Source of the DNA: a virus
Lineage: Duplodnaviria > Heunggongvirae > Uroviricota > Caudoviricetes
Virus record (IMG/VR): IMGVR_UViG_3300023174_004816
Coordinates: 1 to 64,000 of that record
Length of the DNA stretch: 64,000 nt
Strand: one strand, 5' to 3'
Position numbers and translations under genes: made by a program. This document shows positions 10,557-51,968 of this stretch, one piece after another; within the stretch, counting starts at the first letter, position 1; the number at the start of each line of letters is the position of its first letter. Below the pieces are notes generated by a model, which had not been told where the DNA came from, ran no database searches, and saw nothing but the letters and a program-made list of their open reading frames with translations.

Positions 10557-10557
10557 C

Positions 10558-11129: not shown

Positions 11130-11133
11130 TACA

Positions 11134-11349
11134 ATGGCTCACAGGTTTGTGGTCAAGAAGGACAATGAAATACTAGAATTTCAACGGTATGAAGATATAC
11201 CTGATGAATTTGATCATTTGTTGGGGTTTCTACCAGAAATTCCTCCTCCACCACACACCGACGAGCAACATGAAGAAATAGAATCTTGGATATCCAAGTT
11301 TAACAGATTGATGGAGATAGAACATGCCAGCACAAGCAAGAGTAGGTGA
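11134..11349 (+). CDS. hypothetical acidic protein
   Basis: 71-aa ORF; no motif. Confidence 0.35.
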   Translation: MAHRFVVKKDNEILEFQRYEDIPDEFDHLLGFLPEIPPPPHTDEQHEEIESWISKFNRLMEIEHASTSKSR

Positions 11350-11614
11350 TCCAGGAATTCCACATTGCAGTCCTTATGTGATAGCGACTGGGTCATTAGA
11401 TGTAATAGTCAACGGCAAGCCCGCGGCCTACCTGGGATCCTTGTCTACACCCCATTTGATCCCTGCTGGAAAATTTTGTGTTACTCATGTAGCACCAGTG
11501 GTGTTTGGCAGCACGTCTGTTATAATCAACGGCAAGCCTGCGGCCAGAGTTGGGGACCCGTTGGGTACCTGTACAGCTATTGCTCTAGGCAGTTTTGACG
11601 TGGTCACAGGATAA
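11324..11614 (+). CDS. PAAR-repeat protein (spike-tip, T4 gp5.4/T6SS PAAR-like)
   Basis: Repeated ARVGDP...C motifs (AQARVGDPGIPHC, AARVGDPLGTC) and VIVNGKPAA repeats; GGAG RBS before ATG 11324. Confidence 0.8.
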   Translation: MPAQARVGDPGIPHCSPYVIATGSLDVIVNGKPAAYLGSLSTPHLIPAGKFCVTHVAPVVFGSTSVIINGKPAARVGDPLGTCTAIALGSFDVVTG

Positions 11615-11620
11615 AGTTTC

Positions 11621-13855
11621 ATGGCGTGTAGTGGTGCTATAACTTCCATAGTAATGACCGCGGCAGGATCATTTATTGCCAACGGCGGTCTCACTGAAGT
11701 GTTTGGTGCAGAACCTTTTAGTTCTCTTGCTGGCGCCACTGGAGACCTAGTATCGGTGGCTGGTGATGCCACCATGATGTGTACTGCTGAAACAGTGGGT
11801 GCCATTACAGAAACTGTTGGCCAGAGTTGGTATCAATCTCTTGGGACTACATTGTCTTCAATGAAAGATTCTGTGTTGGAATTCACAGCTGGCATGAAGG
11901 ATGCGTGGAATCAAATTGCCACTGCGCCAGCTGCCGCTGGAAAAGAAATTTTCAACGCCACTCAAGGTACCTGGGGACCACAGACAGCACAGTTTCTGCA
12001 AACTGTGACCACTAACACTTTTCAAACAGCTCTTGACATGGGTCTAAGCACAGTTGGTACCACGCTGGGTGGCAGTGGTCAACTTGTTGCTGGAGTCATG
12101 CAAGGAGATCCTAGAGTTCTTGGACAGATAATTCCTGGCGCATCGAGCTATGTTAATCTAGCAAACTCCTTTATCAATGCATCTAAAAAAGGTGGCACCC
12201 TTGACAAAACTTTTCAAAGCCTTGACAACACCATCACTGCCGGAGTCGATGGTGTAAGCAACTGGTTCAAAGGATTGGGAACTGATACAGCCAAATTAGG
12301 CGACACTGTGAGTTGGGAAAATTTATCAAACCTAGGCAGTCCTGGACAACTTGTTGCCAACATGGAAAACAACGGCACACTGGGTCCATTGTATGACAAG
12401 ATGAAAAACATAACTCTCAGCGAAAAAGACGCACAACAGCTGGGTTACAATGTAGTTACATCTGTGTACGGTGTAGCCACTGGCAGTAAGAATTCAGTGG
12501 GCGTGTTTGATTTAAGCAGAGGTATTACCTTGGGATCTTTGGGAGTTGATCTAAACACTGTGGCACGACAAGGTGCCAACCTTCCATCAGGAGTACAGAG
12601 ACAAATATATGATGTTCTGGGAACACTTAACACCACAGAAGTAGCACAGGTCAAAGGCATCTTAAATAACACTCAATCAGCAATAACCAAAGGCACTGAT
12701 TTATTAAATCCACAAAAACTGTTTGCATCAAGTTATACCACACTCACCACTCCAATTCGCACTGCCAGCCCCGGATGGAGAGCTATCTATGAAAATGAAT
12801 CCGGCAGTGTAAATCCAGAACTCGATCAGCTAGGCGACAATCTCAAAGGTATTATTCCTGATGATCTTGCAGTGGCCAATGCCGCAGTTGCTAGAAGTTT
12901 TGGTCAGATCAAAGGCATACAAGGCAGTAACTCCGCCACACTGGGTGCTACCATTGCCAGTTTAGAAAATCTCAGAGGTTTGCCAGACTTAGAAAATCAA
13001 AGTCAATATGTCACTGACGGTGTAAAACAATTTTGGCAAGATTACTATGGCAATGATTACAACATCAAACTTGGTACAGGAAACTTTGACACCTTGGTAT
13101 TGTCGGATGTCATAGGCTTTGCGGCAGGATACAACAGCGCATTTCCGATCAAAGAAAGCGCACCCTTATTGGATTCATTAAACAGTGCAGGAGCTCTCGA
13201 TGCATTTACCTTTGACGACCCACTGGCTTCGCCAAATCCCATCTACGGAATTTACACAGTGATTCAAAACTTCTGTGCAGGTGCTTACACTGCCGAGGAT
13301 CCAATGATGCCAGGTGATTGGTACACAACTATACCTCCAGGATCAGCAGCCGCTGGTGTATATGGGCCGTTTGCCACAGAGGAAGAGGCATTTGAAGACG
13401 CATGGCTCAATGGCATAATACCTTACACCGCAGTGGCCAGTGCTGACATCTATGAAAACAATCCTGAAGCTCAGACAGTCAATGCCAATGACAGTGTTTG
13501 GCAAGATCAATACGGTAGAGAGTATCTAAATCGTCAACGCATGGACCTTGTGGTCGGAGACATTCGCCCCAGCGATCAAACTGCCATCAGCTTTGCACAA
13601 TCATTGGCCACTTATGGTACAGAAACTGATTTTGGCGGACCAGCGATGTGGCTAGAACGTACGATAGATGTCAGCAGTCTTGGCGGACAATCAGTGATTG
13701 CGGCCATGCGTGAAGGTCGTAATGCCAGCAAATTGTCAGCTATTGGATTGCAAACAGATGCGCCTCTCAGCACTGCTGGACTGGAATATCCTGGCGATCT
13801 AACTCCTAACCAATACGACAAAGACGAGGCCAACGCCTTGGTAATTCGTACTTAA
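11621..13855 (+). CDS. large hypothetical protein downstream of PAAR (possible tail-associated or ejected protein)
   Basis: 744 aa, Gly/Thr/Ser-rich N-terminal half; begins 7 nt after the PAAR stop. Confidence 0.5.
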   Translation: MACSGAITSIVMTAAGSFIANGGLTEVFGAEPFSSLAGATGDLVSVAGDATMMCTAETVGAITETVGQSWYQSLGTTLSSMKDSVLEFTAGMKDAWNQIATAPAAAGKEIFNATQGTWGPQTAQFLQTVTTNTFQTALDMGLSTVGTTLGGSGQLVAGVMQGDPRVLGQIIPGASSYVNLANSFINASKKGGTLDKTFQSLDNTITAGVDGVSNWFKGLGTDTAKLGDTVSWENLSNLGSPGQLVANMENNGTLGPLYDKMKNITLSEKDAQQLGYNVVTSVYGVATGSKNSVGVFDLSRGITLGSLGVDLNTVARQGANLPSGVQRQIYDVLGTLNTTEVAQVKGILNNTQSAITKGTDLLNPQKLFASSYTTLTTPIRTASPGWRAIYENESGSVNPELDQLGDNLKGIIPDDLAVANAAVARSFGQIKGIQGSNSATLGATIASLENLRGLPDLENQSQYVTDGVKQFWQDYYGNDYNIKLGTGNFDTLVLSDVIGFAAGYNSAFPIKESAPLLDSLNSAGALDAFTFDDPLASPNPIYGIYTVIQNFCAGAYTAEDPMMPGDWYTTIPPGSAAAGVYGPFATEEEAFEDAWLNGIIPYTAVASADIYENNPEAQTVNANDSVWQDQYGREYLNRQRMDLVVGDIRPSDQTAISFAQSLATYGTETDFGGPAMWLERTIDVSSLGGQSVIAAMREGRNASKLSAIGLQTDAPLSTAGLEYPGDLTPNQYDKDEANALVIRT

Positions 13856-15769: not shown

Positions 15770-15942
15770 TTCGCTTGATTTTGGCCTTTGTTGTAGCCTT
15801 TGCTATTTGTTATTTTGGTATCTCAGGATTCCGTAATCTTACCGGAAAAGACAAATGGGCATTGACAAAATTGTTGGCCTATAGTATAATGTGTGCTCTG
15901 TTAGCAGTTGGTCTGCTAACTATCATTGTTGTTCTGTTCTAA
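15766..15942 (+). CDS. small membrane protein (2 TM)
   Basis: MIRLILAFVVAFAICYF...; ATGA overlap with the ligase stop, AGGAGA RBS. Confidence 0.4.
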   Translation: MIRLILAFVVAFAICYFGISGFRNLTGKDKWALTKLLAYSIMCALLAVGLLTIIVVLF

Positions 15943-15952
15943 AGGAAATCTC

Positions 15953-16750
15953 ATGAAACGTATCGCAACCCTGTCTCTCATTGCCGCCGCAGTTCTTGCC
16001 ACTGGCTGTACTCGAATTGAAACCGGTGAAGTTGGTGTTCGAGTTGGATTTGACAAACAAGTCAAACCGGGTGAGCTTATGCCAGGCTCGTTTAATCAAA
16101 CCATCATTGGTGATGTGCTGACATTTCCAGTCAAAGACGTCAATGTCACTCTAAATGATATGACTCCTGTGGCCAAAGACAACTCTACCATGAAGGATCT
16201 TGATGCTGTAGTCGTTTACAACATCAATCCCAGCCAGGTAGCTGAGCTATACAGCACTAAGAACAAATCGTTCCACGCCGAACACAAAGGCGACACTTAT
16301 GTGATGTACAACTACATCGTACAAAACTCTCGTAATGCCATCTACAAAGCCGCCCGAAAGTACGAAGCTCTGGACATGGCAGACAATCGTGAAAATATGG
16401 AACGCCAGATCCAGGAAGAAATCAACAAAAATCTTGCTGAAGAAAAGTTGGACGGTACTATTACTATCAGCCAAGTATTGATTCGTAACGTAGTGCCAGC
16501 TGACAGTGTTGTAGAATCTGCCAACGCACTGGTCCGTGCCAAAAACGAATACAAGCAGAAAGAGGTTGAAGTACAGACTGCTAAAAAAGAAGCTGAACGT
16601 ATGGCCGCCCTGGCCAATAACTCAGCAAGTTCTATCGCATTCATGAACGCCCAGGCCGCACTTAATATCTCAGAAGGTATCAAGAACGGCAAGGTACAGA
16701 CCATTGTTGTGCCTGCCAATTTCAATGCCTTGATGTTGCCCAAGCAGTAA
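15953..16750 (+). CDS. SPFH/band-7 (HflC/K-like) lipoprotein
   Basis: Lipobox LATGC after a signal peptide; RIETGEVGVRVGFDKQV SPFH core; coiled-coil C-terminus. Confidence 0.6.
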   Translation: MKRIATLSLIAAAVLATGCTRIETGEVGVRVGFDKQVKPGELMPGSFNQTIIGDVLTFPVKDVNVTLNDMTPVAKDNSTMKDLDAVVVYNINPSQVAELYSTKNKSFHAEHKGDTYVMYNYIVQNSRNAIYKAARKYEALDMADNRENMERQIQEEINKNLAEEKLDGTITISQVLIRNVVPADSVVESANALVRAKNEYKQKEVEVQTAKKEAERMAALANNSASSIAFMNAQAALNISEGIKNGKVQTIVVPANFNALMLPKQ

Positions 16751-17717: not shown

Positions 17718-18189
17718 TTTAACTGTTGATCAACGCCAGTTTCTCAATGAGTTGCAAGGTGTTCGACACGTGGTGATCAGTAAATGCCATGGCGGGTTTG
17801 GATTGAGCACCCAGGCTATCAAACTGTATCTCAAACTCAAAGGTCAACGGTGTTGGATTGAAAAAAGCCAGTATGGTACAGACTATGTTTGGTTGGTGCC
17901 TAAACATCAGCGAGTGGATTATGACATTGCCCCAGAAAAATGGCACTCCATGAGTCAGGCTGAACGGCAACAACACAATGCGTTGTGTGATCAACAAATA
18001 TTTTCTGATCGAACCATTGACAGAGATGATCCTGTTCTAGTACAGGTGGTACGAGAGCTAGGATCAAAACGATCCAGCAGTCGATTTGCCGAACTTAAAA
18101 TTATAGAAATACCAGCCGATGTTGCTTGGCAAATCGAAGAATACGATGGCGCCGAATGGGTGGCAGAAAAACACCGAGTTTGGAGTTGA
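17695..18189 (+). CDS. hypothetical protein
   Basis: 164-aa ORF. Confidence 0.4.
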   Translation: MKALQDPDLTVDQRQFLNELQGVRHVVISKCHGGFGLSTQAIKLYLKLKGQRCWIEKSQYGTDYVWLVPKHQRVDYDIAPEKWHSMSQAERQQHNALCDQQIFSDRTIDRDDPVLVQVVRELGSKRSSSRFAELKIIEIPADVAWQIEEYDGAEWVAEKHRVWS

Positions 18190-18214
18190 CATATTCCAAA
18201 AATTACGCTATACT
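18186..18214 (+). promoter_or_regulatory. sigma70-like promoter TTGACA-17-TATACT
   Basis: TTGACA at 18186-18191, TATACT at 18209-18214. Confidence 0.45.
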
Positions 18215-18496: not shown

Positions 18497-19927
18497 ATGC
18501 TCTTGACATATCTCATGCTCGCGGTGGCATTGTGCTTGAGCGCAGTGGCCGCGTTTTACTCCATAGCCGGATTGGCCGCGATATTCGCCGCCGCCGTGAT
18601 CCCCATTGTGATCATGGGATCTATCCTAGAGGCCGCCAAACTAGTGGTCACAGTGTGGTTGCACGAATACTGGAGCCGTTGCCGCCTAGCAATGAAACTG
18701 TACCTTGTGCCAGCTGTATTCTTTCTCATGCTTATCACCAGCATGGGAATCTTTGGCTTCTTATCAAAAGCGCACTTAGATCAAGCAGTGCCCACCGGCG
18801 ATGTGGCCTCAAAAGTACAGCTCATTGACGAAAAGATTAAAACTGAAAAAGACAACATCGAAGCCGCTCGCAAAGCTCTGCGACAGATGGATGATGCTGT
18901 GGATCAAACCATGGCACGAAGCAATGATGAAAAGGGTGCTGACAAAGCCGCCGCATTGAGACGTAGCCAAGCACGTGAGCGTGGAGTGCTACAAAATGAC
19001 ATAGCCTCCGCACAAAAGAAAATAGCCACTCTCAATGAAGAACGTGCCCCAATTGCCAGTGAGTTGCGTAAAGTAGAAGCTGAAGTAGGACCGATCAAAT
19101 ACATCGCGGCCTTGATCTATGATGACAATCCCGATGCCAACTTATTAGAAAAAGCAGTACGCTGGGTCATCATACTCCTGGTCATAGTGTTTGATCCGTT
19201 GGCTATAATGATGTTGTTGGCTGCCACAGAAAGCCACAAATGGGAACGAGATAAACCTGCAGTTCCTAAAAAACAAGAGGAGACAGACGATGCCGGCAAA
19301 TTGGATGATAATGCTGAACCTGATGCCAAGGATATGGATGGATTGGATGCAGGAAATAGCAATGACCTACAACCCTCTGCTCCGACTATGGGTATTCCGC
19401 CAGAACACTGGGGTGGACAAGACCTAACAGCTCACTTAGAAAAAAAAGATAATGTGGAAGAAATTGTTTTACCAGCAGAAGAAACAGTAGACGACACTGA
19501 TCCTGAAAAACAAGCTCGTCGTGCCTGGAAAGAACTCAACCCACACGATACCATCCATCGTCAAGAACAACTGCTTGAAGAAGGAAAAATAGCTCGTTTG
19601 CCTTGGGAAGATTTACTTACAGCACAAGCCGATGATATTGCACAATTTACCAATGTTGATTTTGGCACCAAGTTTCCAGAAAATCCTGGCAAAGGCGATG
19701 CCTACATACGTGTAGATTACTTGCCAACCAAATTGTTTAAGTGGAACGGAGTTAAATGGATAGAAGTAGATAAAAACACCACGGATAGCTTTGCCTACAA
19801 TGACAATTACATTGATCATTTGATAGCCAAAATTAGCTCAGGTGAATATGATCCTGAATTATTAAATCCCGGCGAACGTGATCAAATCGAACAACGATTA
19901 CGTGCCGACAACAAACTCAACGGGTAA
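18497..19927 (+). CDS. membrane-anchored coiled-coil protein
   Basis: 3 N-terminal TM helices, a long coiled-coil, an acidic linker, and a C-terminal globular domain. Confidence 0.5.
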   Translation: MLLTYLMLAVALCLSAVAAFYSIAGLAAIFAAAVIPIVIMGSILEAAKLVVTVWLHEYWSRCRLAMKLYLVPAVFFLMLITSMGIFGFLSKAHLDQAVPTGDVASKVQLIDEKIKTEKDNIEAARKALRQMDDAVDQTMARSNDEKGADKAAALRRSQARERGVLQNDIASAQKKIATLNEERAPIASELRKVEAEVGPIKYIAALIYDDNPDANLLEKAVRWVIILLVIVFDPLAIMMLLAATESHKWERDKPAVPKKQEETDDAGKLDDNAEPDAKDMDGLDAGNSNDLQPSAPTMGIPPEHWGGQDLTAHLEKKDNVEEIVLPAEETVDDTDPEKQARRAWKELNPHDTIHRQEQLLEEGKIARLPWEDLLTAQADDIAQFTNVDFGTKFPENPGKGDAYIRVDYLPTKLFKWNGVKWIEVDKNTTDSFAYNDNYIDHLIAKISSGEYDPELLNPGERDQIEQRLRADNKLNG

Positions 19928-19930
19928 ACA

Positions 19931-21130
19931 ATGAGTGACCAATCTCAGTATGAAAATTGCAGTTTTTGTAACAAACACAAAGATGAAGTAAAAAAGTTAA
20001 TTGTTGGCAACGAAGTGGCCATATGCAATGAGTGTGTGGAACTTTGCCAGAGTCTGTTAGATGACGATGTCAAAGAACGTCCCAAAGATGCCACAGACAT
20101 CGATCCTCAAGAACTCAAATCCTATCTTGATCAATATGTGATTGGGCAGGATCGAGCCAAGACTGTGCTCAGTGTGGCCATTGCCAATCACTACAAAAGA
20201 ATACAACACAGTACCTCAGACATCGAAATAGACAAAGCCAACATTCTCATGCTTGGCCCTACCGGGTCGGGAAAAACACTGTTGGCCAAGACAGTGGCAC
20301 GATATCTTGATGTACCGTTTGCCATTGCTGACGCTACATCAATCACTGAAGCTGGGTACGTGGGCGATGATGTAGAAAGTCTCATACAACGACTGCTCAC
20401 TGCCGCTGGCGGTGATGTAGAAAAGTGTCGCCGTGGTATCATATTTGTAGATGAGATAGACAAGATCGCTCGCAAAAGCGAATCAGCATCCATCACCAGA
20501 GACGTATCGGGCGAAGGTGTTCAACAGGCCTTGCTCAAAATGGTAGAAGGCACTGTGTGTCGCATACCAGCCGCAGGTGGTCGCAAACATCCAGGCGGGG
20601 ACATGATTGAAATTGACACTCGCAATATTCTATTCATCGCGGGTGGTGCGTTTGTTGGCCTAGATCAAATAGTTAAAAAACGCATGTACGGTACCAGCAT
20701 GGGTTTTGGAGCCACAGTGTCACAGCCCAAAGAAGTCAGTCTTGAGCATGTGGTTCCCGACGACTTGGTCAAGTTTGGACTGATACCTGAATTTGTAGGG
20801 CGATTCCCTAGCTGGGTCAACTTGGATGGTCTGACCACAGCTGATCTTGTACATGTACTCACAGATACCAAGAATAGTTTGATCAAACAGTATCAGCATT
20901 TATTTGCAGTAGACAAAGTTGAACTGGATTTTGAAGATGATGCGCTGACAACCATTGCACAACGATCAGCAGAGTTTGGCACAGGAGCTCGTGCTTTGCA
21001 CAGCGAGCTAGAGCGTGTGCTAATGCCTCATATGTTTAACATCAAACGCTATCGAGACCGCGGCATAAACCGCGTAGTTATTAACAAAGAACAAATAAAT
21101 AATCCTACACCCGTGTACAAGGAGGAATAG
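19931..21130 (+). CDS. clpX: ATP-dependent Clp protease ATPase subunit ClpX
   Basis: N-terminal C4 zinc finger (CSFCNKH...CNEC), Walker A GPTGSGKT, sensor motifs; 399 aa. Confidence 0.9.
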   Translation: MSDQSQYENCSFCNKHKDEVKKLIVGNEVAICNECVELCQSLLDDDVKERPKDATDIDPQELKSYLDQYVIGQDRAKTVLSVAIANHYKRIQHSTSDIEIDKANILMLGPTGSGKTLLAKTVARYLDVPFAIADATSITEAGYVGDDVESLIQRLLTAAGGDVEKCRRGIIFVDEIDKIARKSESASITRDVSGEGVQQALLKMVEGTVCRIPAAGGRKHPGGDMIEIDTRNILFIAGGAFVGLDQIVKKRMYGTSMGFGATVSQPKEVSLEHVVPDDLVKFGLIPEFVGRFPSWVNLDGLTTADLVHVLTDTKNSLIKQYQHLFAVDKVELDFEDDALTTIAQRSAEFGTGARALHSELERVLMPHMFNIKRYRDRGINRVVINKEQINNPTPVYKEE

Positions 21131-21131
21131 T

Positions 21132-21344
21132 TTGGGAAAACGTGTAGAAGTCCGTGATGGCAATGTAGAAAAAGCCCTGCGGAAATTTAAGAAAAAAATA
21201 CAGGAATCTGGTCTGCTGTTCGAACTCAAAGAACGTGAGCAGTATATCAAGCCCACCACTCAGCGCAAGCTCAAGGCATCTGCGGCTAAAAAACGCTGGC
21301 AAAAACATCTACGCAGTCAGCAACTTCCACCCAAACAGTTTTAA
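21132..21344 (+). CDS. rpsU: 30S ribosomal protein S21 homologue
   Basis: GKRVEVRDGNVEKALRKFKKK...YIKPTTQRKLK resembles bacterial S21; TTG start 7 nt after an AGGAGG. Confidence 0.8.
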   Translation: MGKRVEVRDGNVEKALRKFKKKIQESGLLFELKEREQYIKPTTQRKLKASAAKKRWQKHLRSQQLPPKQF

Positions 21345-21562
21345 TGTACATTGTTTTTGATGTAAGATTTCGACACGAATTAGACACAGTCAAAGAGCAA
21401 ATCGCTCAGTGGGCTGAAAAGTATCAAATACAGTACACTCAAAAAACCATAAAATATCAGCACCGCTTGGGTCTCAATCGAGACAAAGAATTTACTCTTT
21501 TCTCAATGACCTGGGAAGGTGTTCCTTACAAAATAGTCAATATCGGCAACGAAGGATATTGA
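21344..21562 (+). CDS. hypothetical protein
   Basis: 72-aa ORF overlapping the S21 stop. Confidence 0.4.
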   Translation: MYIVFDVRFRHELDTVKEQIAQWAEKYQIQYTQKTIKYQHRLGLNRDKEFTLFSMTWEGVPYKIVNIGNEGY

Positions 21563-21651
21563 CAACTCTTGAAAAATCTGTTATAAATATACATGTAGAT
21601 GCCGATGGTCGGGTCTACATAGTCAAACTTGCTTAAACAAAGGAGAAAATT
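21559..21651 (+). promoter_or_regulatory. TTGACA-17-TATAAA promoter plus structured 5'UTR (ROSE-like thermometer candidate) upstream of hsp20
   Basis: -35 at 21559-21564 and -10 at 21582-21587; hairpin TGTAGA...TCTACA at 21594-21619; UUGCU at 21629-21633 can pair with the SD AGGAG at 21641-21645 with a G-G mismatch. Confidence 0.45.
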
Positions 21652-22098
21652 ATGACTAAAATTACATCCCTAGATCTCACACCTTTTTATCGCCAAGCCA
21701 TTGGCATTGATGGTCTTTTTGATCGTCTCATGCACAACATTGATATGGCCAGTGCAAACAATGGTGGTAACAACTACCCTCCCTACAACATCATCAAAAC
21801 TGGTGAGGATTCCTATGAAATCCAAATTGCTGTAGCAGGGTTTGCCGAAGGTGAAGTAGAACTCAACTTCCACGAAGGACAACTTGTGATCACAGGAGAA
21901 AAGAACACAGATGACAGCGACACACAGTACCTACATCGAGGTATCAGTGCCCGTAAGTTCATCCGTACTTTCCAACTCAGTGATTATGTGGAAGTTCGTG
22001 AAGCCACTATCAAAGATGGTATTTTGACAGTGAGTTTGCAACGCATTGTGCCCGAAGAAATGAAGCCAAAGCGTATTGCAATCTCCTACGCAAAATAA
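21652..22098 (+). CDS. ibpA: small heat-shock protein Hsp20 (IbpA-like)
   Basis: YPPYNI, IAVAGFAEGEVEL alpha-crystallin domain, collinear with E. coli IbpA. Confidence 0.85.
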   Translation: MTKITSLDLTPFYRQAIGIDGLFDRLMHNIDMASANNGGNNYPPYNIIKTGEDSYEIQIAVAGFAEGEVELNFHEGQLVITGEKNTDDSDTQYLHRGISARKFIRTFQLSDYVEVREATIKDGILTVSLQRIVPEEMKPKRIAISYAK

Positions 22099-22158
22099 TA
22101 TAATGTAGTAAATACAGTGGAGGGCATGTTGCTCTCCACTCAATAGCAAGGGAAAAAG

Positions 22159-22473
22159 ATGTCCGATACAGCTACGCAAACAAGAACTATAATACAACCC
22201 AGAGAAGATCTCAAAGAACCTCCCATGTTCAAGGTCATATATCTCAATGACAATCAAACTTCAATGGAATTTGTAATCGAAAGCCTGGTAGCACACTTTG
22301 ATTATAACCCTGCCACAGCAGAAAAACTCACTGTAGACATCCATGAAGATGGGTCAGCAGTGGTAGCAATATTGCCCTATGAGTTAGCCGAACAAAAAGG
22401 CATCGAAGTCACTGTGGATGCTCGAGGCGCTGGTTATCCACTACAAGTCAAACTTGAGCCTGATCAGGTTTAA
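22159..22473 (+). CDS. clpS: ClpS adaptor protein
   Basis: PPMFKVIYLNDNQTSMEFVIESL core resembles ClpS. Confidence 0.85.
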   Translation: MSDTATQTRTIIQPREDLKEPPMFKVIYLNDNQTSMEFVIESLVAHFDYNPATAEKLTVDIHEDGSAVVAILPYELAEQKGIEVTVDARGAGYPLQVKLEPDQV

Positions 22474-23261
22474 AAGTTTATTTCAATTCGTTTAGGATAA
22501 TACACCGATTTTGACCAAGGTGTATTTCCACGACCTCTGCAGTTGTTGACATAACGCACTCCGCCTAACCAGGAATCTACATCACCGTGGTAGTGACCAA
22601 AACACCAGGTGTGTATCTTTGATTCTGTGTCATTGACCACTGCTTTCATGATATGACTGTTGCCAGACGAATTTAATCTGTAGGTGTTGGCCAGTTCATT
22701 GTCGTGTTTGATAAGATCCACACAAGGAACAGTGTGTGTGACTATGACTATTTTCTTAACGTCTTGATGCGTTTGCAGTCGTTCTACAGATTTGGCAAGA
22801 TATGCAAAGTCATTGAGGGCCATGGATTCAACAGCATCCACAGCGGTTTGGTTAATTTGATAACGATCTCGAAACCACTCTCGACTTTGGTCGTAGTCAA
22901 TGTAAGGATCCATGTCAAAGGTCCACCAAGCATTGGTTCCTAAAAAGGCCACACCATCCACAATACAAACATTGTCTTGTAGGTATGTTACATTGGGTAT
23001 GTCTTCCAATTCTTCGGCCAATGACCGATAACTTTCCCCAAGGTCGTCTAAATTAAATCTATGTTCATCGTTGCCGTCTATGTAAAAAACAGCTCGATAA
23101 CGTTCGCCCAGGTGACGAAGAGTTTCAATCACCGTGGTACGGTCTCGAGATATATCACCAGCTACCACGCACATCATGCTAGTGGCTTGACCGGTCCAAT
23201 CAAAAGGTTGGTCCCAGGTTTCTATATGCAAATCGGAAATTAAATCAAAGGCAAGTTTCAT
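22470..23261 (-). CDS. calcineurin-like metallophosphoesterase
   Basis: DLH, GDISRD, GNDEH and GHYHGD metal-binding motifs. Confidence 0.7.
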   Translation of the reverse strand: MKLAFDLISDLHIETWDQPFDWTGQATSMMCVVAGDISRDRTTVIETLRHLGERYRAVFYIDGNDEHRFNLDDLGESYRSLAEELEDIPNVTYLQDNVCIVDGVAFLGTNAWWTFDMDPYIDYDQSREWFRDRYQINQTAVDAVESMALNDFAYLAKSVERLQTHQDVKKIVIVTHTVPCVDLIKHDNELANTYRLNSSGNSHIMKAVVNDTESKIHTWCFGHYHGDVDSWLGGVRYVNNCRGRGNTPWSKSVYYPKRIEINF

Positions 23262-24319: not shown

Positions 24320-24769
24320 ATGAAAAATATAATAATTGCGGCGCTGGGCATCGCAATAATGCCTGTTGTTGCTGTTTCTGCACCACTGCCAGACTTTAGT
24401 TTTAAAAGTCCTGCTTTTAACGGAGTAGGTTATAGCAGTCACGTCCTCACAATCGAGAATCAAGAAGCCACACGTCGTAAAGCTCTTGAAGACAAAATAC
24501 AATCTGCCATAGACAAAGCGGCTGCTGATGCTAAAAATACAAATCTGGCAAAGTTTTTAAACAATCTAGAAAGTCGTATCTATGCTCAGATCTCGCAGAA
24601 CTTGGCCACGGCTATGTTTACTGCTGGAACTTCAACGTCGGGTTCGTTTAACTTTGAAGGCAACGTAATAGAGTGGACCAAAGACAGCACCAGTGTTTAT
24701 CTCACAGTGAGAGACACAGTGGGCAATACCACACAGATCACAGTGCCATTGGGACAGTTTACTTTCTAA
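24320..24769 (+). CDS. csgF: curli assembly protein CsgF-like
   Basis: Signal peptide then FSFKSPAFNGVGY (cf. CsgF FQFRNPNFGGNPNNG) and C-terminal QITVPLGQFTF (cf. TIQVSGLQNNSTDF); AGGAG RBS. Confidence 0.6.
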   Translation: MKNIIIAALGIAIMPVVAVSAPLPDFSFKSPAFNGVGYSSHVLTIENQEATRRKALEDKIQSAIDKAAADAKNTNLAKFLNNLESRIYAQISQNLATAMFTAGTSTSGSFNFEGNVIEWTKDSTSVYLTVRDTVGNTTQITVPLGQFTF

Positions 24770-24770
24770 T

Positions 24771-26015
24771 ATGAAAAAAGTATTAACTATATTCTCTTTG
24801 ATCACAATATTAAGTGGATGTGCCATCATCCAAAGCACCAGCTTGAACGAAACAGATCCCACAGTGTCCGCACAAAGAGAGAATATCAAAAAAGATTTTG
24901 ATACTCTTCCGCCACCAAGTTCGGGCAAACCAATCAGTGTGGCAGTTTACAGTTTTAAAGATTTAACCGGCCAACGTCGTCCACAAACCAATGTGGCAAG
25001 TTTATCAACAGCAGTCACACAAGGTGCTGAAGCATTTTTAATCAAGGCACTACAAGATGTTGGCAATGGTCGTTGGTTTGATGTAGTTGAGCGTGTGGGC
25101 ATAGATAACCTGACCAAAGAACGTCTGATCATTCGTCAGATGCGTGAAGCCTACGAGGGCGCCAACGCTAAACCACTCATGCCCATGCAGTTTGCTGGCA
25201 TGATCATTGAAGGTGGTATTGTTGGGTACGACTCATCGATCAACAGTGGTGGCGCTGGTATGCGAGTGTTCGGTATTGGTAAACAAACACAATGGACACA
25301 GGATGTGGTCACAGTAAGCCTACGTGCTGTGAGTGTAAACACAGGCAAAGTCTTGGTCACAGTTGCAGTACAAAAAACTATTTTAGGATCTGCTGATTCA
25401 GTGAGTGCATTGAAATTCTATGACATGGGCACCAAAGCCTTTGAAGCAGAAACAGGACTCACGATCAATGAGCCCGGAACTTATGCAGTGAAATCAGCCA
25501 CTGAAGCCGCTGTGGTAGAGTTGATCAAAGAAGGACAACGCAAAGGAGTATGGGATTTTAAACCGGAGACACCACCCCCAACACCACAAGTTCAGTCTGG
25601 ATCTCCGGCTCCAGTGATTGCCAGCGAGATTAAGACTGTTTCACCGCAAGTCAAGGAGAACAAAAATGAGTTGGTTCAACCACAAACCCCCAAAGCATCC
25701 GCCGCTGCCACCACAACAACACCCGCACCGGTTCAGCCCAATATCGGAAAAGATACGCGAGGGGACAAAACAGAAAGTAAACCCGTTGTCACAAAAACAG
25801 AAGAACCCAGACCGCTGTTCGGACAACGAAGATTAAAAGAAGCTGAGTTCATTTATAAAGAACCCAATGATCGTAGTCAAAAAACTTGGCAGTTCAAAAA
25901 AGGCACAGTGGTAGACATCAGACAACCAGGCAGCGATGGTTGGGTCAGAGTCACTGACAGCGAGCAACGAGGGGGCTGGATTCGTGTGGAACAACTAGAA
26001 GAACTTGGCCGTTAA
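24771..26015 (+). CDS. csgG: curli secretion channel CsgG-like lipoprotein with a C-terminal SH3-like extension
   Basis: Lipobox LSGC; SVAVYSFKDLTGQ, GGIVGYDSSINSGGAGMRVFGIG and TVSLRAVSVNTGKVL collinear with E. coli CsgG; extra Pro/Thr-rich linker plus an SH3b-like C-terminus. Confidence 0.8.
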   Translation: MKKVLTIFSLITILSGCAIIQSTSLNETDPTVSAQRENIKKDFDTLPPPSSGKPISVAVYSFKDLTGQRRPQTNVASLSTAVTQGAEAFLIKALQDVGNGRWFDVVERVGIDNLTKERLIIRQMREAYEGANAKPLMPMQFAGMIIEGGIVGYDSSINSGGAGMRVFGIGKQTQWTQDVVTVSLRAVSVNTGKVLVTVAVQKTILGSADSVSALKFYDMGTKAFEAETGLTINEPGTYAVKSATEAAVVELIKEGQRKGVWDFKPETPPPTPQVQSGSPAPVIASEIKTVSPQVKENKNELVQPQTPKASAAATTTTPAPVQPNIGKDTRGDKTESKPVVTKTEEPRPLFGQRRLKEAEFIYKEPNDRSQKTWQFKKGTVVDIRQPGSDGWVRVTDSEQRGGWIRVEQLEELGR

Positions 26016-26149: not shown

Positions 26150-26971
26150 TTGATGGAAATGAAAAACAGAATGACAGGCGCCGGTGGGTTGTCGAGTAAA
26201 TTACTCACCCTAATGTTGGTGTTAGGCATTAGTTGTACTGCAAATGCTGTAGACAACAGCATATACATAGATCAAAGCGGAGACACCGCCACGATCAACA
26301 TTACCCAAGACGGTTCTACCAACCGTGTCAAGGGTATACTGCCTAGTGGAAACCCAGGATTGACCACAGACCCAGCAACAATCACAGGCGATGGCATTTT
26401 GGTCAACGTCCAACAGGTTGGCAATAACAACACATTAAATCTTGGAGTTAATACTACCACTGCTTCGGGAGGAAATCCTACAACAGTCAACTACTCAGTG
26501 TCAGGCAACAACAACCAGGGTATGATTAACTTAAACAATGATGGTCAAGGTACCAATCAAAGCACTACATTAGATATCACACAGACCGGTGGAACCAACG
26601 TTGCTGATGTGGGTATCTTGGGAGCCAACAACAGTCTGACAGTGGATCAGAGCGGCGGCGGCGCAACTATCTATGCTAGAATCAATGCCGATGACACCAT
26701 GTCTACAGTGACAACCAGTGGTGGCTCGGGCAACGAAGTCAGCTTAAATCTCACAGGCAACAAAGGACAAGCAGATGTAACCATTGTTGGTGGATCCAAC
26801 ATTGTAGGGATCACACAAAGCGGTGGTGGTACATTGGGTCATAAGTCCACTGTTAACCTTGACGGGTCCGGTAACAATGTAGCCATAACTCAGGGCGGTA
26901 CCATTGACACCAATGTCAATTTGAAAAGTGTAGGATCTGGTAATGCTTTTACTATCAACACTCATAACTAA
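26150..26971 (+). CDS. curlin-repeat (CsgA/CsgB-like) secreted protein
   Basis: Signal peptide; repeated Q-x-G-x-x-N curlin repeat units (IDQSGDTATINITQDGSTN, VDQSGGGATIY, ITQSGGGTLG). Confidence 0.55.
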   Translation: MMEMKNRMTGAGGLSSKLLTLMLVLGISCTANAVDNSIYIDQSGDTATINITQDGSTNRVKGILPSGNPGLTTDPATITGDGILVNVQQVGNNNTLNLGVNTTTASGGNPTTVNYSVSGNNNQGMINLNNDGQGTNQSTTLDITQTGGTNVADVGILGANNSLTVDQSGGGATIYARINADDTMSTVTTSGGSGNEVSLNLTGNKGQADVTIVGGSNIVGITQSGGGTLGHKSTVNLDGSGNNVAITQGGTIDTNVNLKSVGSGNAFTINTHN

Positions 26972-26980
26972 GAGGGAACA

Positions 26981-28108
26981 ATGAAACTATGCAAGCTACT
27001 ACAATGCGCACTCTTGCTGAGTATATCACTGAACTGCATCGCGGCGATAGGTACCATAACAGAACAACTCAATGCGCCGGGTTCGATACAACGATCCACG
27101 GCAACAGTGACGGGGACCAAGGGGACCAAGGTGGAGATGCAGGACTCAGTCAAGACCCAGCAGGGCAAGCTGGGGATAACCTTTGACGATCAAACTCGTG
27201 TACAGGTCAACGAGAACTCCAAGTTAGTCATTGACAGCTTTGTATATGATCCTAAAAAGGGTGCGGGTAAACTGGCAGTCAATGTGGCCTTGGGCACAGT
27301 GCGTTATGCTTCGGGACAGATTGCTAAAAATAGTCCACAGAATGTGGCAGTCAACACACCAACTGCCACTATATCAGTTCGTGGCACAGATTTTTCAGCC
27401 ACAGTGGATGAGTTGGGGCAAAGCACTATTATTTTGCTACCTAGTTGTCCTAATGATCGCAGTAATAGAACTGCACGAGATATTGAGCGTGATTGCAAAA
27501 CTGGCGAGATTGTGGTAGAAAGCGATGCAGGACAAGTTATTCTCAATCAACCTTTTCAAGCCACAAGAGTGGACAGTCGCGGTGCCGCCCCTAGTGCGCC
27601 AACCATACTAAAGCTCAGTGAAGATGCCATTGGCAATATGTTGATTATGTCGCCACCACGCGAACTCAGAGAAGATAACACTCGTAACCGTGCAGAACTT
27701 AGAGGAGCCTTGGACATAGACTTCCTCAAAGAACAAGGCCTGGTCAATGCTCTTGACGCACAAGAAAAAGAAATATTTCAAGACAAGTTGAGTCGTAACT
27801 TTTTAGATCAAGACTTCTTGGCCAACATCTTGGACATTGTGAACGCACAGTTGGCCGCACAGTTAGACTTGTTGAATAAAAACAACAACAGCAAACTATT
27901 ACCTGATTGGTTACCATTGACTGGTGTCACTGTGGATCTTCAAGAGCCCAAAGTAACCCTAGCCAGAGACGATGGTAGCAACATCATGAGTGTTACAGTT
28001 CCAACCTCACAAAATCCCACAGTGATTATGTCACAGGGGTGGGTCATGGACATTAAGAATCGAGTCAACAATGGAGGCAGCACAACTATTACGCTGATAC
28101 AAAAATGA
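26981..28108 (+). CDS. secreted FecR-domain-like protein
   Basis: Signal peptide; beta-rich region (VRYASGQIAKN...ISVRGTDFSATVDELG) resembling a FecR/DUF4880 fold; assignment tentative. Confidence 0.35.
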   Translation: MKLCKLLQCALLLSISLNCIAAIGTITEQLNAPGSIQRSTATVTGTKGTKVEMQDSVKTQQGKLGITFDDQTRVQVNENSKLVIDSFVYDPKKGAGKLAVNVALGTVRYASGQIAKNSPQNVAVNTPTATISVRGTDFSATVDELGQSTIILLPSCPNDRSNRTARDIERDCKTGEIVVESDAGQVILNQPFQATRVDSRGAAPSAPTILKLSEDAIGNMLIMSPPRELREDNTRNRAELRGALDIDFLKEQGLVNALDAQEKEIFQDKLSRNFLDQDFLANILDIVNAQLAAQLDLLNKNNNSKLLPDWLPLTGVTVDLQEPKVTLARDDGSNIMSVTVPTSQNPTVIMSQGWVMDIKNRVNNGGSTTITLIQK

Positions 28109-29644: not shown

Positions 29645-29818
29645 TACTCCTTAAAAGAGTATATCATGGATGTCATTCCAATGAATGAGGATTATACGAT
29701 CCATAATATACTATGATATTATGGTCTTGTCCGGAACCTATTTCCTTATGCACCGAGCCGTTAAGCCGAATTGACGACGCATAAAACTCTTATATTAAGA
29801 GTGGACTACTCCCCATGC
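29645..29818 (-). ncRNA. candidate yybP-ykoY (Mn2+) riboswitch in the TerC leader
   Basis: Minus-strand leader begins UGGGGAGUAG (29806-29815), then the hairpin CUCUUAAUAUAAGAG, then GGACAAGACC; the expression platform AUACUCUUuuaAAGGAGUAU sequesters the SD; ykoY itself is TerC-family. Confidence 0.45.
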
Positions 29819-31899
29819 AAGTATTTAGTAAATACATGATGCTAAAGAAAACTACTATTAAAAAATTACTGGTTAGTCCATGGACAGCATTGTTGACATT
29901 GGCACTTATTTTAAGTATAAGAATCGCAGACCCTACATTTGTAGAAAGCATAAGATTACGATATTTTGACACACTGATCACAGCGCAGGCACCCACTGTC
30001 AACAATATCTATACTGTGAACATTGATGAAGCCGCCCTAGACAAGTATGGACAGTGGCCTTTGCCCAGAGTCAACTACGCAGAAATTGTACAGGATCTAT
30101 ATACCCGTGGCGCTGGACTGGTTGTACTCAACGTGCTCATGGCTGAGCGCGATCGCACTGGAGGTGATGGTGCGCTGGCTGCCATGCTACGACATTATCC
30201 TGTGGTCTTGGGCTCAGTGCCCAGCGCCAAAAACAAAAACACTCCTCGTGTGCCAGGATCAGCTGTGTTGAATCCAGAGTGGATGGATCAGATAGTCACA
30301 TACCCAGGATTGATCGCCAACGTTTCTCAGTTGGAACGCAGTGCCGCTGGTGTGGGCATTGTCAATACCTTGCCAGAAGTAGATGGTGTAAATCGTCGTG
30401 TGCCCTTGATAGTCACAGTTGACAGCAAACTATATCCAGGGTTGGCTCTGGAAACTCTGCGTGTGGCCACAGGCAATGACACTTTCCAGGTCAAACTGTT
30501 CGAAGGCGGCGTTGAAAAGATGCGCTTGCCTGGAGATGTTGGTATACTCAACACAGACAATCTTGGACGCATCTGGATTGACTGGAGTCAGCAATCAAAA
30601 TCAGTGTCACTGACCAGCTTGCCCAAAGACTTTGGTGGTGCTATCGTTATAGTTGGTGCTACTGCCGCAGGCATTGCCAACCCTGTGCCCACCAGCCGTG
30701 GTGCTGTGTTTCCACATGAAGTACAGTCCGCTGTGATAGGTACCCTGGCAAACGGCGTGAATATTCAACGGCCAGACTGGGCGGATGGTGCTGAAATCAT
30801 ATTCATAGCAGTGTTGGGTGTGATCATTATTGGATTATCGAGGTGGACTTATGCAGGTATTCTTATATCTATTGTGGGGATCATTGCCCCTATTGTTGCC
30901 AGTCGTTTGGGCTTCAATGAGTGGCGAATCTTGGCAGACGCAACGGCAAGCACGGCTGGTCTTGTTCTCGTGGCTCTGCATACTTACGGCGTTAAGTTTG
31001 TAAGTGAGTTCTTACAGAAACAAGCCATAAAGAAACAGTTTGCTGGCTACTGTTCAAAAGAAGTGGTAGAGATGCTACAGAAAGATCCAGACTTGATCAG
31101 GCGAGGTGTGCGCAAAGACGTATCAGTTATGTTCAGTGATCTACGTGGCTTCACACCCATTGGTGAACACTACGGCGATGACGTAGGCGGACTAGGCCGG
31201 TACATGAACGGTTACATGGATGCTATCAGCCAACCCATGATGGACAACAAAGGCATGATCATCAAGTATGTGGGCGATGCCTCCATGCACATACATGGTG
31301 CTCCCATTGAAGATCCTAATCACGCTAGAACTATCGTTAGGGTAGGATTGGAGATGTTGGACAAGGTAGACGAGTATACCAAGCTGATGGAAGCACAAGG
31401 CCTGCCACCTGCGGCCATGGGTTGGGGTTGTAATTCAGGTATTGGCTTTATTGGCGAGATGGGTTCAACAGAACGACACAGCTATGACATCTTGGGTGAC
31501 ATGGTGTCAACAGCCGCAAGACTAGAAGCACGTTGTAAAGCCTATGGTGTGTTATGTATCATTGGCGCTGAAACATACAACAGAACCAAAGACGATTTCT
31601 TCTATTTGTTGCTGGACAACTTACAGCCTAAGGGAAAAACAGTAGCAGATTTGATCTACACAGCACTACGTACCAAGGGCGCAGACTACTCAAAAGATCG
31701 AGCACAGCATGAAGAGATGCATGCCCTGTACCGTCAGAAAAAGTTTGACGAGGCCGCCGCAATGTGTAAAAAACTAGCAGGTAACTTTGGCGGGCAGATG
31801 GACAAGTATTACAAGATCTGGATTGAGCGTTGCGAGTTCATGAAGCAACAAGATTTAGGTGATAACTGGAACGGCGAATTTATTGCTCACGAGAAATAA
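29815..31899 (+). CDS. CHASE2-sensor membrane-bound class III adenylate/guanylate cyclase
   Basis: N-terminal TM, ~300-aa periplasmic CHASE2-like region (LDKYGQWPLPR), 2-3 TM helices, then cyclase motifs VSVMFSDLRGFTPIGE and KYVGDASMHIHGAP. Confidence 0.8.
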   Translation: MQVFSKYMMLKKTTIKKLLVSPWTALLTLALILSIRIADPTFVESIRLRYFDTLITAQAPTVNNIYTVNIDEAALDKYGQWPLPRVNYAEIVQDLYTRGAGLVVLNVLMAERDRTGGDGALAAMLRHYPVVLGSVPSAKNKNTPRVPGSAVLNPEWMDQIVTYPGLIANVSQLERSAAGVGIVNTLPEVDGVNRRVPLIVTVDSKLYPGLALETLRVATGNDTFQVKLFEGGVEKMRLPGDVGILNTDNLGRIWIDWSQQSKSVSLTSLPKDFGGAIVIVGATAAGIANPVPTSRGAVFPHEVQSAVIGTLANGVNIQRPDWADGAEIIFIAVLGVIIIGLSRWTYAGILISIVGIIAPIVASRLGFNEWRILADATASTAGLVLVALHTYGVKFVSEFLQKQAIKKQFAGYCSKEVVEMLQKDPDLIRRGVRKDVSVMFSDLRGFTPIGEHYGDDVGGLGRYMNGYMDAISQPMMDNKGMIIKYVGDASMHIHGAPIEDPNHARTIVRVGLEMLDKVDEYTKLMEAQGLPPAAMGWGCNSGIGFIGEMGSTERHSYDILGDMVSTAARLEARCKAYGVLCIIGAETYNRTKDDFFYLLLDNLQPKGKTVADLIYTALRTKGADYSKDRAQHEEMHALYRQKKFDEAAAMCKKLAGNFGGQMDKYYKIWIERCEFMKQQDLGDNWNGEFIAHEK

Positions 31900-47248: not shown

Positions 47249-47284
47249 TTTAGCCAAAATCCATAATATTGGTATATATTTTTG

Positions 47285-51907: not shown

Positions 51908-51968
51908 TGCAATTCTTTTCTATGTATGCTATACTTATCTAGGATACTTACATTATCAAGGAGAAATA

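Follow-up and report, generated by a model that had tools for sequence, protein, structure and literature searches.

A viral gene island encoding ClpX, bS21, Hsp20 and ClpS, with a ROSE_3-like leader and two ClpP genes

The stretch of DNA analysed here, positions 1 to 64,000 of the IMG/VR virus record IMGVR_UViG_3300023174_004816 (64,000 nucleotides in full, referred to below as the window), carries an island of genes for the unfoldase ClpX, a homologue of the ribosomal protein bS21, a small heat-shock protein of the Hsp20 family and the adaptor ClpS. About 27 kb from this compact module, in which a 476-aa protein precedes ClpX-bS21-ORF72-Hsp20-ClpS, lies a second one, which consists of a divergent ClpP gene, an antisense open reading frame (ORF) and a canonical ClpP gene. 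The motifs of these genes are complete, purifying selection on them is strong, and their synteny is shared across a large viral clade but not with cells. The Hsp20 gene is preceded by a leader that resembles the ROSE_3 family and is a candidate RNA thermometer. The features of the island are the following, numbered from the first letter of the window.

18186-18214, plus strand: sigma-70-like promoter candidate, TTGACA-17-TATACT, the best consensus match (11/12), upstream of the first gene of the island
18497-19927, plus strand: 476-aa protein with a hydrophobic N-terminal region, directly upstream of ClpX throughout the environmental clade
19931-21130, plus strand: ClpX AAA+ unfoldase (NF003745 equivalog, 557 bits against a cutoff of 359)
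21132-21344, plus strand: bS21 homologue, with a TTG start 1 nt past the ClpX stop and AAGGAGG upstream
21344-21562, plus strand: 72-aa ORF (ORF72), overlapping the S21 stop by 1 nt and additional to the genes named earlier
21652-22098, plus strand: IbpA-like Hsp20/alpha-crystallin protein (Pfam HSP20, 68.7 bits against 20.8)
22159-22473, plus strand: ClpS N-degron adaptor homologue (Pfam ClpS, 77.5 bits against 23; aligns to E. coli ClpS structures)
22470-23261, minus strand: metallophosphoesterase (phrog_1649, E=2e-32), which closes the island in most relatives

Genes of the island and their viral context

An earlier note on this DNA, made by reading the sequence, had named six ORFs as ClpX, S21, Hsp20, ClpS and two ClpP proteins, and scans against Pfam, NCBIfam and PHROG find all six in their places and matching their families. 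ClpX, to which the note had ascribed a zinc finger and an ATPase, also exceeds the cutoff of TIGR00382 (533 bits against 371), matches Pfam zf-C4_ClpX and AAA_2 and aligns over its full length to solved ClpX. The C4 zinc finger, GPTGSGKT, GYVG, Walker B, RKH, arginine finger and sensor-2 motifs are conserved in 45 clade sequences. The IGF/LGF-type loop of ClpX reads MGF in the window and [I/M]GF across the clade, and the corresponding pocket of the canonical ClpP is mostly kept. The bS21 homologue exceeds the TIGR00030 equivalog cutoff (66 bits against 29) and the Pfam threshold (60 against 27) and matches phrog_21469; the best 120 database matches to it are all close metagenomic relatives. 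For Hsp20, which is assigned to phrog_432, the Pfam threshold is passed and the best NCBIfam model is IbpA, at 132 bits and thus under the cutoff of 212, so that by family score the protein is IbpA-like and not an IbpA equivalog. Its C-terminal IXI motif (RIAIS) is found in 41 of 42 clade sequences. All residue checks used E. coli reference sequences verified against NC_000913.3. Purifying selection acts on every gene of the island and on both ClpP genes, with ratios of non-synonymous to synonymous substitution rates (dN/dS) of 0.03-0.17 overall (ranges by gene: 476-aa protein, 0.06-0.20; ClpX, 0.03-0.08; bS21, 0.04-0.12; ORF72, 0.04-0.17; Hsp20, 0-0.13; ClpS, 0-0.10; divergent ClpP, 0.035-0.058).

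Related ClpX genes occur at 76 IMG/VR loci on contigs of up to 353 kb, and in about 50 of these, down to roughly 60% ClpX identity, the order 476-aa protein-ClpX-S21-(ORF72)-Hsp20-ClpS is kept and is followed by the metallophosphoesterase on the opposite strand. The contigs that are nearly identical to the window are 335,508 and 340,917 bp long. No close DNA relative was found among deposited phage genomes by a search at the DNA level, and a protein identical to the ClpX of the window has not been recorded; the closest cultured counterpart, which was reached by protein search of deposited phages, is Pseudomonas phage vB_PaeM_PA5oct (Arenbergviridae, NC_071039.1; PA5oct below). When 185,579 species genomes were scanned, all cellular ClpX sequences were at most 57% identical to that of the window, and clpP lay directly upstream of clpX in 77 of 79 cellular loci, with S21, Hsp20 or ClpS near clpX in none of the 79. 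The sole species-genome match above 57% (locus L193, 67%) was binned with a Haliscomenobacter metagenome-assembled genome and has the phage synteny; it is a co-binned phage contig. The earlier note had considered that the genes might turn out to be host sequence flanking a prophage. This does not hold, because cellular ClpX stays at or below 57% identity and sits in clpP-clpX operons, the synteny of the island occurs on viral contigs only, and the one exception is itself a phage contig by synteny.

The window as a whole is gene-dense, has nearly all of its ORFs on one strand and contains no tRNA genes, and many of its ORFs have matches in PHROG only or no match at all. It is rich in auxiliary genes, among them ribonucleotide reductase, isocitrate lyase, class II aldolase, an ATP-dependent DNA ligase, an SPFH protein, CsgF, CsgG, a curlin-repeat protein and a CHASE2 cyclase, and it also encodes methyltransferases, UvdE, a fatty-acid desaturase and radical-SAM enzymes. 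Motifs resembling the Shine-Dalgarno (SD) sequence precede 40% of the window genes against 7% in the background. Because of these motifs and the sigma-70-like promoters, a typical Bacteroidota host is argued against; together with the leader of gammaproteobacterial type, the IbpA-like small heat-shock protein and the kinship with PA5oct, they favour a host of proteobacterial type.

The remaining members of the island are less readily assigned. The 476-aa protein, syntenic in about 50 loci, has weak matches to DUF4407 and phrog_11591 and no counterpart adjoining ClpX in PA5oct. ORF72 is 75-97% identical in close relatives, with no family match in Pfam, NCBIfam or PHROG and no similarity to the PA5oct gene in the equivalent position. 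The count of promoter candidates in the region is only about 2 standard deviations above that of shuffled sequences, and the element at 18186-18214 is a consensus match only. A second paralogue of the metallophosphoesterase lies at 58237-59118 (same phrog_1649, E=7e-52), and another metallophosphoesterase, gp236, is found near the PA5oct island. An SPFH/Band-7 gene (15926-16750, Pfam E=1e-20) is situated 1.7 kb upstream of the island, with no NfeD or other Pfam match in the ORFs that follow it. At locus L097 (3081-5515) an alpha/beta hydrolase, a NifU-like protein with a Hint (intein-like) insertion and a peptide deformylase lie between ClpX and Hsp20; ClpS, the divergent ClpP and the canonical ClpP come next, all inside 3 kb.

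The leader of the Hsp20 gene

The interval upstream of Hsp20 contains the following elements.

21559-21589, plus strand: promoter-like element read from the sequence, TTGACA (21559-21564), a 17-nt spacer and TATAAATA (21582-21589)
21593-21657, plus strand: ROSE_3-like element of the 5' untranslated region, candidate RNA thermometer (Rfam RF02523)
21595-21618, plus strand: hairpin 1 of the leader, with a bulged G
21628-21633, plus strand: anti-SD sequence CUUGCU
21641-21645, plus strand: SD sequence AGGAG
21652, plus strand: start codon AUG

The only Rfam match in the island is RF02523 (ROSE_3), which spans the full length of the model and ends on the Hsp20 start codon with a score of 33.2 bits (E=5e-4), below the Rfam gathering threshold of 43 because the loop of hairpin 2 differs. 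This loop is the only point at which the leader departs from the Rfam consensus, with which it has in common hairpin 1 (GAUGCCGA..UCGGGUC, with its bulged G), the anti-SD sequence ACUyGCU, the GGAG and the AUGACU at the start of the gene. The leader of the window folds as two hairpins, the second of which holds the SD sequence and the AUG (minimum free energy -17.1 kcal/mol, z = -3.45). When sequences were folded one at a time, the same architecture was recovered in all 41 distinct Hsp20 leaders of the clade and in PA5oct, and CUUGCU or CUCGCU together with AAGGAG is present in 41/41 leaders.

Covariation is confined to hairpin 1, as hairpin 2 is invariant in sequence and therefore offers none. 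In an alignment fitted by a covariance model, with which the independent per-sequence folds agree, 99.2% of the hairpin-1 cells are paired and double-sided changes occur in 8 of the 10 pairs. The covariation score is 0.75 as against 0.23 +/- 0.03 for shuffled alignments, none of 500 shuffles reaching the observed value, and pairing falls to 17-44% when the 3' partners are slid as a control. RNAalifold on a MAFFT alignment of the leaders had recovered the inner helix only, owing to register shifts of 1 nt, and was replaced by per-sequence folding and the covariance model. Across 759 kb scanned with the hairpin-1 model, nearly all matches are Hsp20 leaders. A weak match in the window at 47323-47348 (18.5 bits, E=0.06), in or near a 125-aa ORF at 47282-47659, is probably due to chance.

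The TATAAATA box upstream of the leader is conserved across the clade (47 leaders). Its use throughout the window as a late promoter of the T4 type was considered and rejected, and since there are 2 matches where 1.65 are expected, the box is not a general motif of the window. The leader itself is not restricted to Hsp20. In 15 clade loci (L049, 11690-13631; L032, 9033-11016; L021, L046 and 11 others) a full-length DnaK gene of 628-659 aa is located between S21 and Hsp20, and in the four of these that were examined (L021, L032, L046 and L049) the DnaK leader matches that of Hsp20 in its promoter box, bulged-G hairpin, CUUGCU and AAGGAG.

The thermometer of P. aeruginosa ibpA is a validated element of 61 nt with two hairpins (PMC13104619), and ROSE-like thermometers of P. 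aeruginosa and P. putida ibpA are attributed to Krajewski 2013 in the summary given there. From homology to these elements, we infer that the Hsp20 leader may sense temperature. A literature search found no report of a ROSE-like thermometer in a phage.

Two ClpP genes and a ClpS adaptor

The second module is made up of three ORFs.

49752-50333, plus strand: divergent ClpP (Pfam CLP_protease, 95 bits against 20.2)
50330-51907, minus strand: 525-aa ORF between the two ClpP genes, where it also lies in most relatives
51969-52562, plus strand: canonical ClpP (PRK00277, 309 bits against 249), the ORF of which opens with GTG at 51879

Both a canonical and a divergent ClpP, as the earlier note had placed them between 49752 and 52562, are supported by these family scores, and alignment shows the Ser-His-Asp triad to be kept in every clade member examined of either kind. 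The canonical ClpP falls under the cutoff of the stricter TIGR00493 equivalog (290 bits against 308.6). Its start is almost certainly the ATG at 51969 and not the GTG at 51879, because AAGGAG precedes the ATG, a protein begun there aligns at its N-terminus with mature E. coli ClpP, and the gene then no longer overlaps the antisense ORF at 50330-51907. Ser97, His122 and Asp171 are 100% conserved in 29 clade sequences, in which the residues of the docking pocket Y62, F82, I90, M92 and L114 are likewise kept, L189 is I, V or L, and Y60 is replaced. The N-terminal motif VPxVxExT..GER..DIYSRLL is present and the axial loop is intact. The protein is 64-68% identical to the ClpP of the jumbo phages Phosso and Atu_ph07.

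The divergent ClpP remains under every NCBIfam cutoff (best, 85 bits against 228) and, judged by its scores, is a member of the ClpP (S14) family and not a canonical ClpP equivalog. S97, H122, D171 and the oxyanion residue G68 are 100% conserved in 26 sequences. The docking pocket, on the other hand, is replaced (Y62 by M or I, F82 by S or A, L114 by T, L189 by S, A or E), Arg170, the sensor, is missing, and the first 18 residues show no conservation and form no gating loop. Among cultured phages, relatives of this protein are encoded by Phosso (54%), Synechococcus phage BUCT-ZZ01 (49%) and RsoM2USA (34.5%). In the window, in locus L105, in Phosso and in BUCT-ZZ01 the neighbours of the gene are replication or auxiliary genes and not those for portal or capsid, and in RsoM2USA too the gene is located outside a head module.

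The two ClpP genes are 0.1-4 kb apart in about 24 of 34 loci, usually with the antisense 525-aa ORF between them, and are adjacent in L084 and L097. The description of the two as a ClpP1/ClpP2-like pair, which the earlier note had offered, is plausible, in that the divergent copy resembles non-docking paralogues in having no ATPase pocket, although in related phages either copy can occur without the other. The 525-aa ORF has no Pfam or PHROG match, and its divergence is mosaic, with identities of 46-82%. Comparison with two loci illustrates this: L077 resembles the window in ClpX (92%) and divergent ClpP (94%) but not in canonical ClpP (71%), the 525-aa ORF (46%) or the radical-SAM gene (32%), and L081 shows 83% for ClpX, 94% for canonical ClpP, 82% for the 525-aa ORF and 64% for the radical-SAM gene. 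The mosaic segment at 50330-53851, which begins with the antisense ORF, includes canonical ClpP and extends to the radical-SAM gene, suggests that modules have been exchanged between related phages.

ClpS passes the Pfam threshold and aligns to E. coli ClpS; it is below the cutoff on all NCBIfam equivalog models (best, 67 against 149). In 40 sequences, by E. coli numbering, N34, D35, T38 and H66 are invariant, M40 is mostly kept and L99 is conserved. T replaces the gatekeeper M62 in 38 of the 40, and N replaces D36 in 23; the pocket would thus be present and its specificity may differ. E79, E82 and K84, the residues that contact ClpA, are kept in 39-40 of the 40 clade sequences and in PA5oct.

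ClpS is the adaptor of ClpA and ClpC, not of ClpX. The complete ClpXP-ClpS set proposed by the earlier note is therefore not a functional unit. Neither the window nor 1.87 Mb of clade loci yielded a ClpA N-domain or D1 module, and in relatives there is no ClpA within 10 kb of the island. PA5oct encodes a DnaJ and a ClpA (gp187 and gp186) 21 kb from its ClpS, for which reason the firm claim that ClpS must hijack host ClpA was dropped. The partner of ClpS may be the ClpA of the host or a phage ClpA encoded elsewhere in the genome. A second chaperone module exists in PA5oct-like phages, with the order Cpn10, PhoH (on the opposite strand), DnaJ, in some cases peptide deformylase, and ClpA; it is seen in L362 at 8676-12277 (ENA GROS21-1 scaffold_145), in PA5oct at 188381-195842 and on environmental contigs of up to 346,880 bp.

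Proposed mechanism and comparison with known systems

In the proposed mechanism, hexamers of the phage ClpX would dock through their [I/M]GF loops onto the canonical phage ClpP, and since the pocket and the N-terminal loop of this ClpP are intact, the phage is proposed to have a ClpXP protease of its own. The divergent ClpP would be an active serine peptidase that is unable to dock an ATPase; it would most likely form the non-docking ring of a mixed ClpP complex, as in bacterial ClpP1/ClpP2, or else act as an ungated peptidase. ClpS with its M62T gatekeeper may bind N-degron substrates and pass them to a ClpA-type unfoldase, either that of the host or one encoded elsewhere in the phage genome as in PA5oct, and bS21, translationally coupled to ClpX, may join the 30S subunits of the host. 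Hsp20 would serve as a holdase, the translation of which is gated by the ROSE_3-like leader through pairing of the SD sequence and the start codon. A proteobacterium was probably the source of the leader, which would have come in along with an ibpA-like gene and have been reused before the phage DnaK in a subclade. Jointly, the genes would enable the phage to manage protein folding and turnover as well as translation while it infects the cell. The takeover of host proteostasis and translation of which the earlier note had spoken is an inference, and as a claim it is overstated.

How far this picture can be trusted depends on how its alternatives fare. That the genes are host-derived, either as the flank of a prophage or on a bacterial or plasmid contig mistaken for a phage, would fit the bacterial type of every protein, the lack of head, tail and terminase genes in the window and the binning of L193 in a Haliscomenobacter genome; we regard it as highly improbable, as L193, the only close ClpX match in the species genomes, is itself phage-syntenic, cellular clpX genes keep to their clpP-clpX arrangement with none of the other island genes nearby, many IMG/VR contigs of 100-353 kb repeat the synteny, the same order is found in the cultured lytic phage PA5oct, and the window is dense, one-stranded and free of tRNA genes with many ORFs that are PHROG-only or matchless. 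The nature of the leader is less settled. It might be a constitutive attenuator, an mRNA-stabilising hairpin or a site at which a phage or host protein times chaperone synthesis, and hairpin 1 keeps an invariant G-bulge and CC/GG core amid a covarying remainder, which suggests sequence-specific recognition; the sub-threshold Rfam score and the little opening that is predicted for the window leader between 15 and 50 °C point the same way. Against this, the GAUGCCGA..UCGGGUC hairpin, U(U/C)GCU, GGAG and AUGACU are the Rfam ROSE_3 consensus itself, the design agrees with the validated P. aeruginosa ibpA thermometer (PMC13104619), the leader stands upstream of heat-shock-type genes only (Hsp20 and DnaK), and melting of the PA5oct leader in silico is clear, the unpaired value rising from 0.27 to 0.80 between 15 and 50 °C. 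A role other than that of a thermometer is accordingly a minority reading, albeit one to be taken seriously.

For the divergent ClpP, two alternatives to a partner of the canonical ClpP have to be considered. ClpP-fold prohead proteases are common among phages, and the best PHROG matches of the divergent copy carry the label head maturation protease (phrog_94, 78 bits). These labels do not discriminate, because the canonical ClpP outscores the divergent copy on the same PHROGs (162 bits). The score on the NCBIfam model Clp_rel_HeadMat is 51.8 bits against a cutoff of 120 and, together with the non-structural neighbours of the gene in the window, L105, Phosso and the T4-like cyanophage BUCT-ZZ01, argues against a prohead role. 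T4-like phages use a prohead protease of the gp21 type. As the divergent gene is also usually linked to the canonical one, a head-maturation function is considered unlikely. An ungated, ATPase-independent peptidase, working alone or with host ClpP and with no obligate canonical partner, is a more serious contender, though still not the favoured one: the gating loop and the ATPase pocket are gone from a protein that keeps its triad, its oxyanion Gly and a full-length handle region, several phages have no canonical ClpP nearby, and N-terminal truncation of ClpP is known to open the pore. This reading has to accommodate the position of the gene within 0.1-4 kb of canonical ClpP in most clade loci, with direct adjacency in L084 and L097, and the loss of the inter-ring sensor Arg170 may hinder self-assembly to a tetradecamer. 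The AlphaFold model, being unusable, lends it no help either.

Several observations weigh against the proposed mechanism and the phage to which it is ascribed. Genes for capsid, portal or terminase are absent from the window, which has only weak PHROG matches to virion structural proteins, for which reason its identity as phage rests on the viral contigs, the PHROG matches and the synteny with PA5oct. As to the leader, none of the seven related loci scanned reaches the ROSE_3 gathering threshold, which the window leader likewise misses, and its melting in silico is weak (unpaired, 0.25 to 0.39 from 15 to 50 °C). The AlphaFold model of the divergent ClpP, built on a 20-sequence alignment, has a predicted local distance difference test (pLDDT) score of 48 and is unusable. 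Loci L099-L101 and L104-L109 have only the divergent ClpP within 8 kb, PA5oct has only the canonical one, and the idea of a heteromeric ClpP is weakened because each type thus occurs without the other. Among the matches listed for E. coli, PA5oct and environmental ClpA queries, the last picked by sample and tetranucleotide similarity, no ClpA could be traced to a contig that also bears the island; flanking genes in common and the hairpin of the leader likewise linked none to such a contig, again among the matches listed.

On balance, the explanation as a whole is held to be fairly probable, namely that the window belongs to the arm of auxiliary genes in an uncultured jumbo phage, about 335-341 kb in size and distantly related to the PA5oct lineage, with an island that would work as outlined. 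A bolder version, offered in its entirety as a speculation that we consider possible without thinking it likely, is a widespread jumbo-phage lineage with a self-contained heat-shock-like regulon, in which a captured ROSE thermometer, a non-docking ClpP that reshapes the protease, be it as one ring of a mixed phage ClpP or as an ungated peptidase, and a Thr-gatekeeper ClpS that retargets N-degron degradation come together. The thermometer would have been captured with the ibpA-like gene and copied before DnaK, gating the chaperones by temperature or by the state of the infected cell, and the island would be a co-regulated system and not a set of independently captured host genes. What has stood of the overall interpretation in the earlier note is the identity of the genes, their origin in a phage and the presence of the catalytic residues; the completeness and unusualness of the set have not.

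Other parts of the window deserve mention in their own right. The window shares with near-identical genomes (also L273-L276) a curli-type cluster, in which CsgF (24320-24769) is joined by CsgG (24771-26015), the latter with an SH3 domain at its C-terminus, by a protein with curlin repeats (26150-26971) and by one with a FecR domain (26981-28108); a CHASE2-adenylate/guanylate cyclase follows at 29815-31899. At 8680-10556, right after two ribonucleotide reductase subunits, the window encodes an isocitrate lyase (403 aa, Pfam ICL E=5e-102) and a class II aldolase; among the auxiliary metabolic genes of phages the isocitrate lyase is unusual. The interval 11324-13855 holds a small protein, the counterpart of which in relatives has a weak PAAR-motif match, and then a 744-aa protein that is conserved in near-identical genomes and gave no match in Pfam, in PHROG or in tblastn searches of phages.

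The island itself is not new in kind, since jumbo phages are known to carry proteostasis and translation genes of their own. Three features merit further work: the leader with its resemblance to ROSE, the ClpP paralogue that has lost its docking pocket, and the changed gatekeeper of ClpS. The module is abundant in metagenomes, and because it is also present in PA5oct, which is cultured and genetically accessible, the benefit of a phage ClpXP and ClpS, the working of the candidate thermometer and the role of a non-docking ClpP are now testable. A phage RNA thermometer, if true, would be a compact and portable regulatory part and a sign that the sensing of temperature or stress matters in infection.

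Compared with the gammaproteobacterial ROSE_3 of ibpA, the phage leader has a similar length of about 60 nt, two hairpins, the GAUGCCGA..UCGGGUC stem with its bulged G, a U(U/C)GCU anti-SD sequence pairing with GGAG, and the AUG in or beside the second hairpin, and it too stands upstream of an IbpA-like small heat-shock protein. It differs in its location in a phage genome, in the loop of hairpin 2 and in its duplication before DnaK in some phages. ClpP1/ClpP2-type pairs are known from bacteria such as Mycobacterium, Listeria and P. aeruginosa. The two phage genes resemble these pairs in being linked or adjacent, in their apparently intact triads and in that one of the two is without ATPase-docking features. 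Unlike in the bacterial pairs, the divergent ClpP shows no specific relationship to any of the solved ClpP paralogues (about 27-32% identity), has neither N-terminal loop nor Arg170 sensor, and is not always found together with the canonical gene.

Clp genes have been described from several large phages. Atu_ph07 has seven Clp-family genes (Attai et al. 2018, PMC6102473), and a survey of jumbo phages reported ClpP, ClpA or ClpX, Hsp20 and a ClpS proposed to feed host ClpAP (Iyer et al. 2021, PMC7824862). Like the window, Atu_ph07 (Agrobacterium) and Phosso (Sinorhizobium) encode ClpX (50-51% identity), canonical ClpP (65-68%) and ClpS; Phosso carries the divergent ClpP type as well (54%), adjoining MutT and IF-1, and Atu_ph07 additionally has ClpA, ClpB and Hsp20 (PMC6102473, PMC7824862). 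In these two phages the Clp genes are scattered over genomes of 470-490 kb and do not form one island, and no linkage to S21 was seen. In phage G, ClpP and ClpX were found in virions by mass spectrometry (PMC12484599). Among large phages, Pelagibacter phage HTVC008M and freshwater Bacteroidota phages (PMC9723584) likewise encode a small basic S21 homologue; the window differs from them in that its S21 is coupled to ClpX and does not lie in a head-gene module. Hsp20 (n=127) and two Clp pVOGs (n=50 and 47) rank among the commonest genes found no more than ten genes away from phage bS21 (Chen et al. 2022, PMC9723584), and incorporation into 30S subunits has been shown experimentally for the S21 of another phage, as cited in the same paper. 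With these precedents, and with the same gene order together with ClpP and ClpA in PA5oct, the gene set is not an unusual one.

PA5oct offers the nearest comparison. No paper describing its island as such was found in a literature search, and its RefSeq record names ClpX (gp229) and ClpA (gp186) after porphyrin biosynthesis and ClpP (gp212) as a head maturation protease, the correct names appearing only in notes or in the GenBank version (L277, 4743-5969; L281, 7624-9843; L279, 3350-4021). These mislabels hide the Clp module from keyword searches. PA5oct differs from the window in having no relative of the divergent ClpP at E<=1e-8, no counterpart of the 476-aa protein or the 72-aa ORF, a ClpS that keeps M62, and a DnaJ-ClpA and an FtsH of its own; the surroundings of its island include this FtsH, a membrane protein that interacts with FtsH, and a PAAR protein. 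The order of the genes is nevertheless that of the window, from gp229 (ClpX) through gp228 (S21), gp227 (hypothetical), gp226 (QueD-like) and gp225 (Hsp20) to gp224 (ClpS), with a canonical ClpP (gp212, flagged in the record as detected by electrospray ionisation tandem mass spectrometry, ESI-MS/MS) 7.5 kb further on, and a metallophosphoesterase and a DNA ligase near the island in both. Its Hsp20 is likewise preceded by a leader of hairpin, UUGC anti-SD sequence and AAGGAG. The identities between the two are low, at 43% for ClpX, 49.5% for ClpP, 33% for ClpS and 30% for Hsp20, and the relationship between PA5oct and the phage of the window is an old one.

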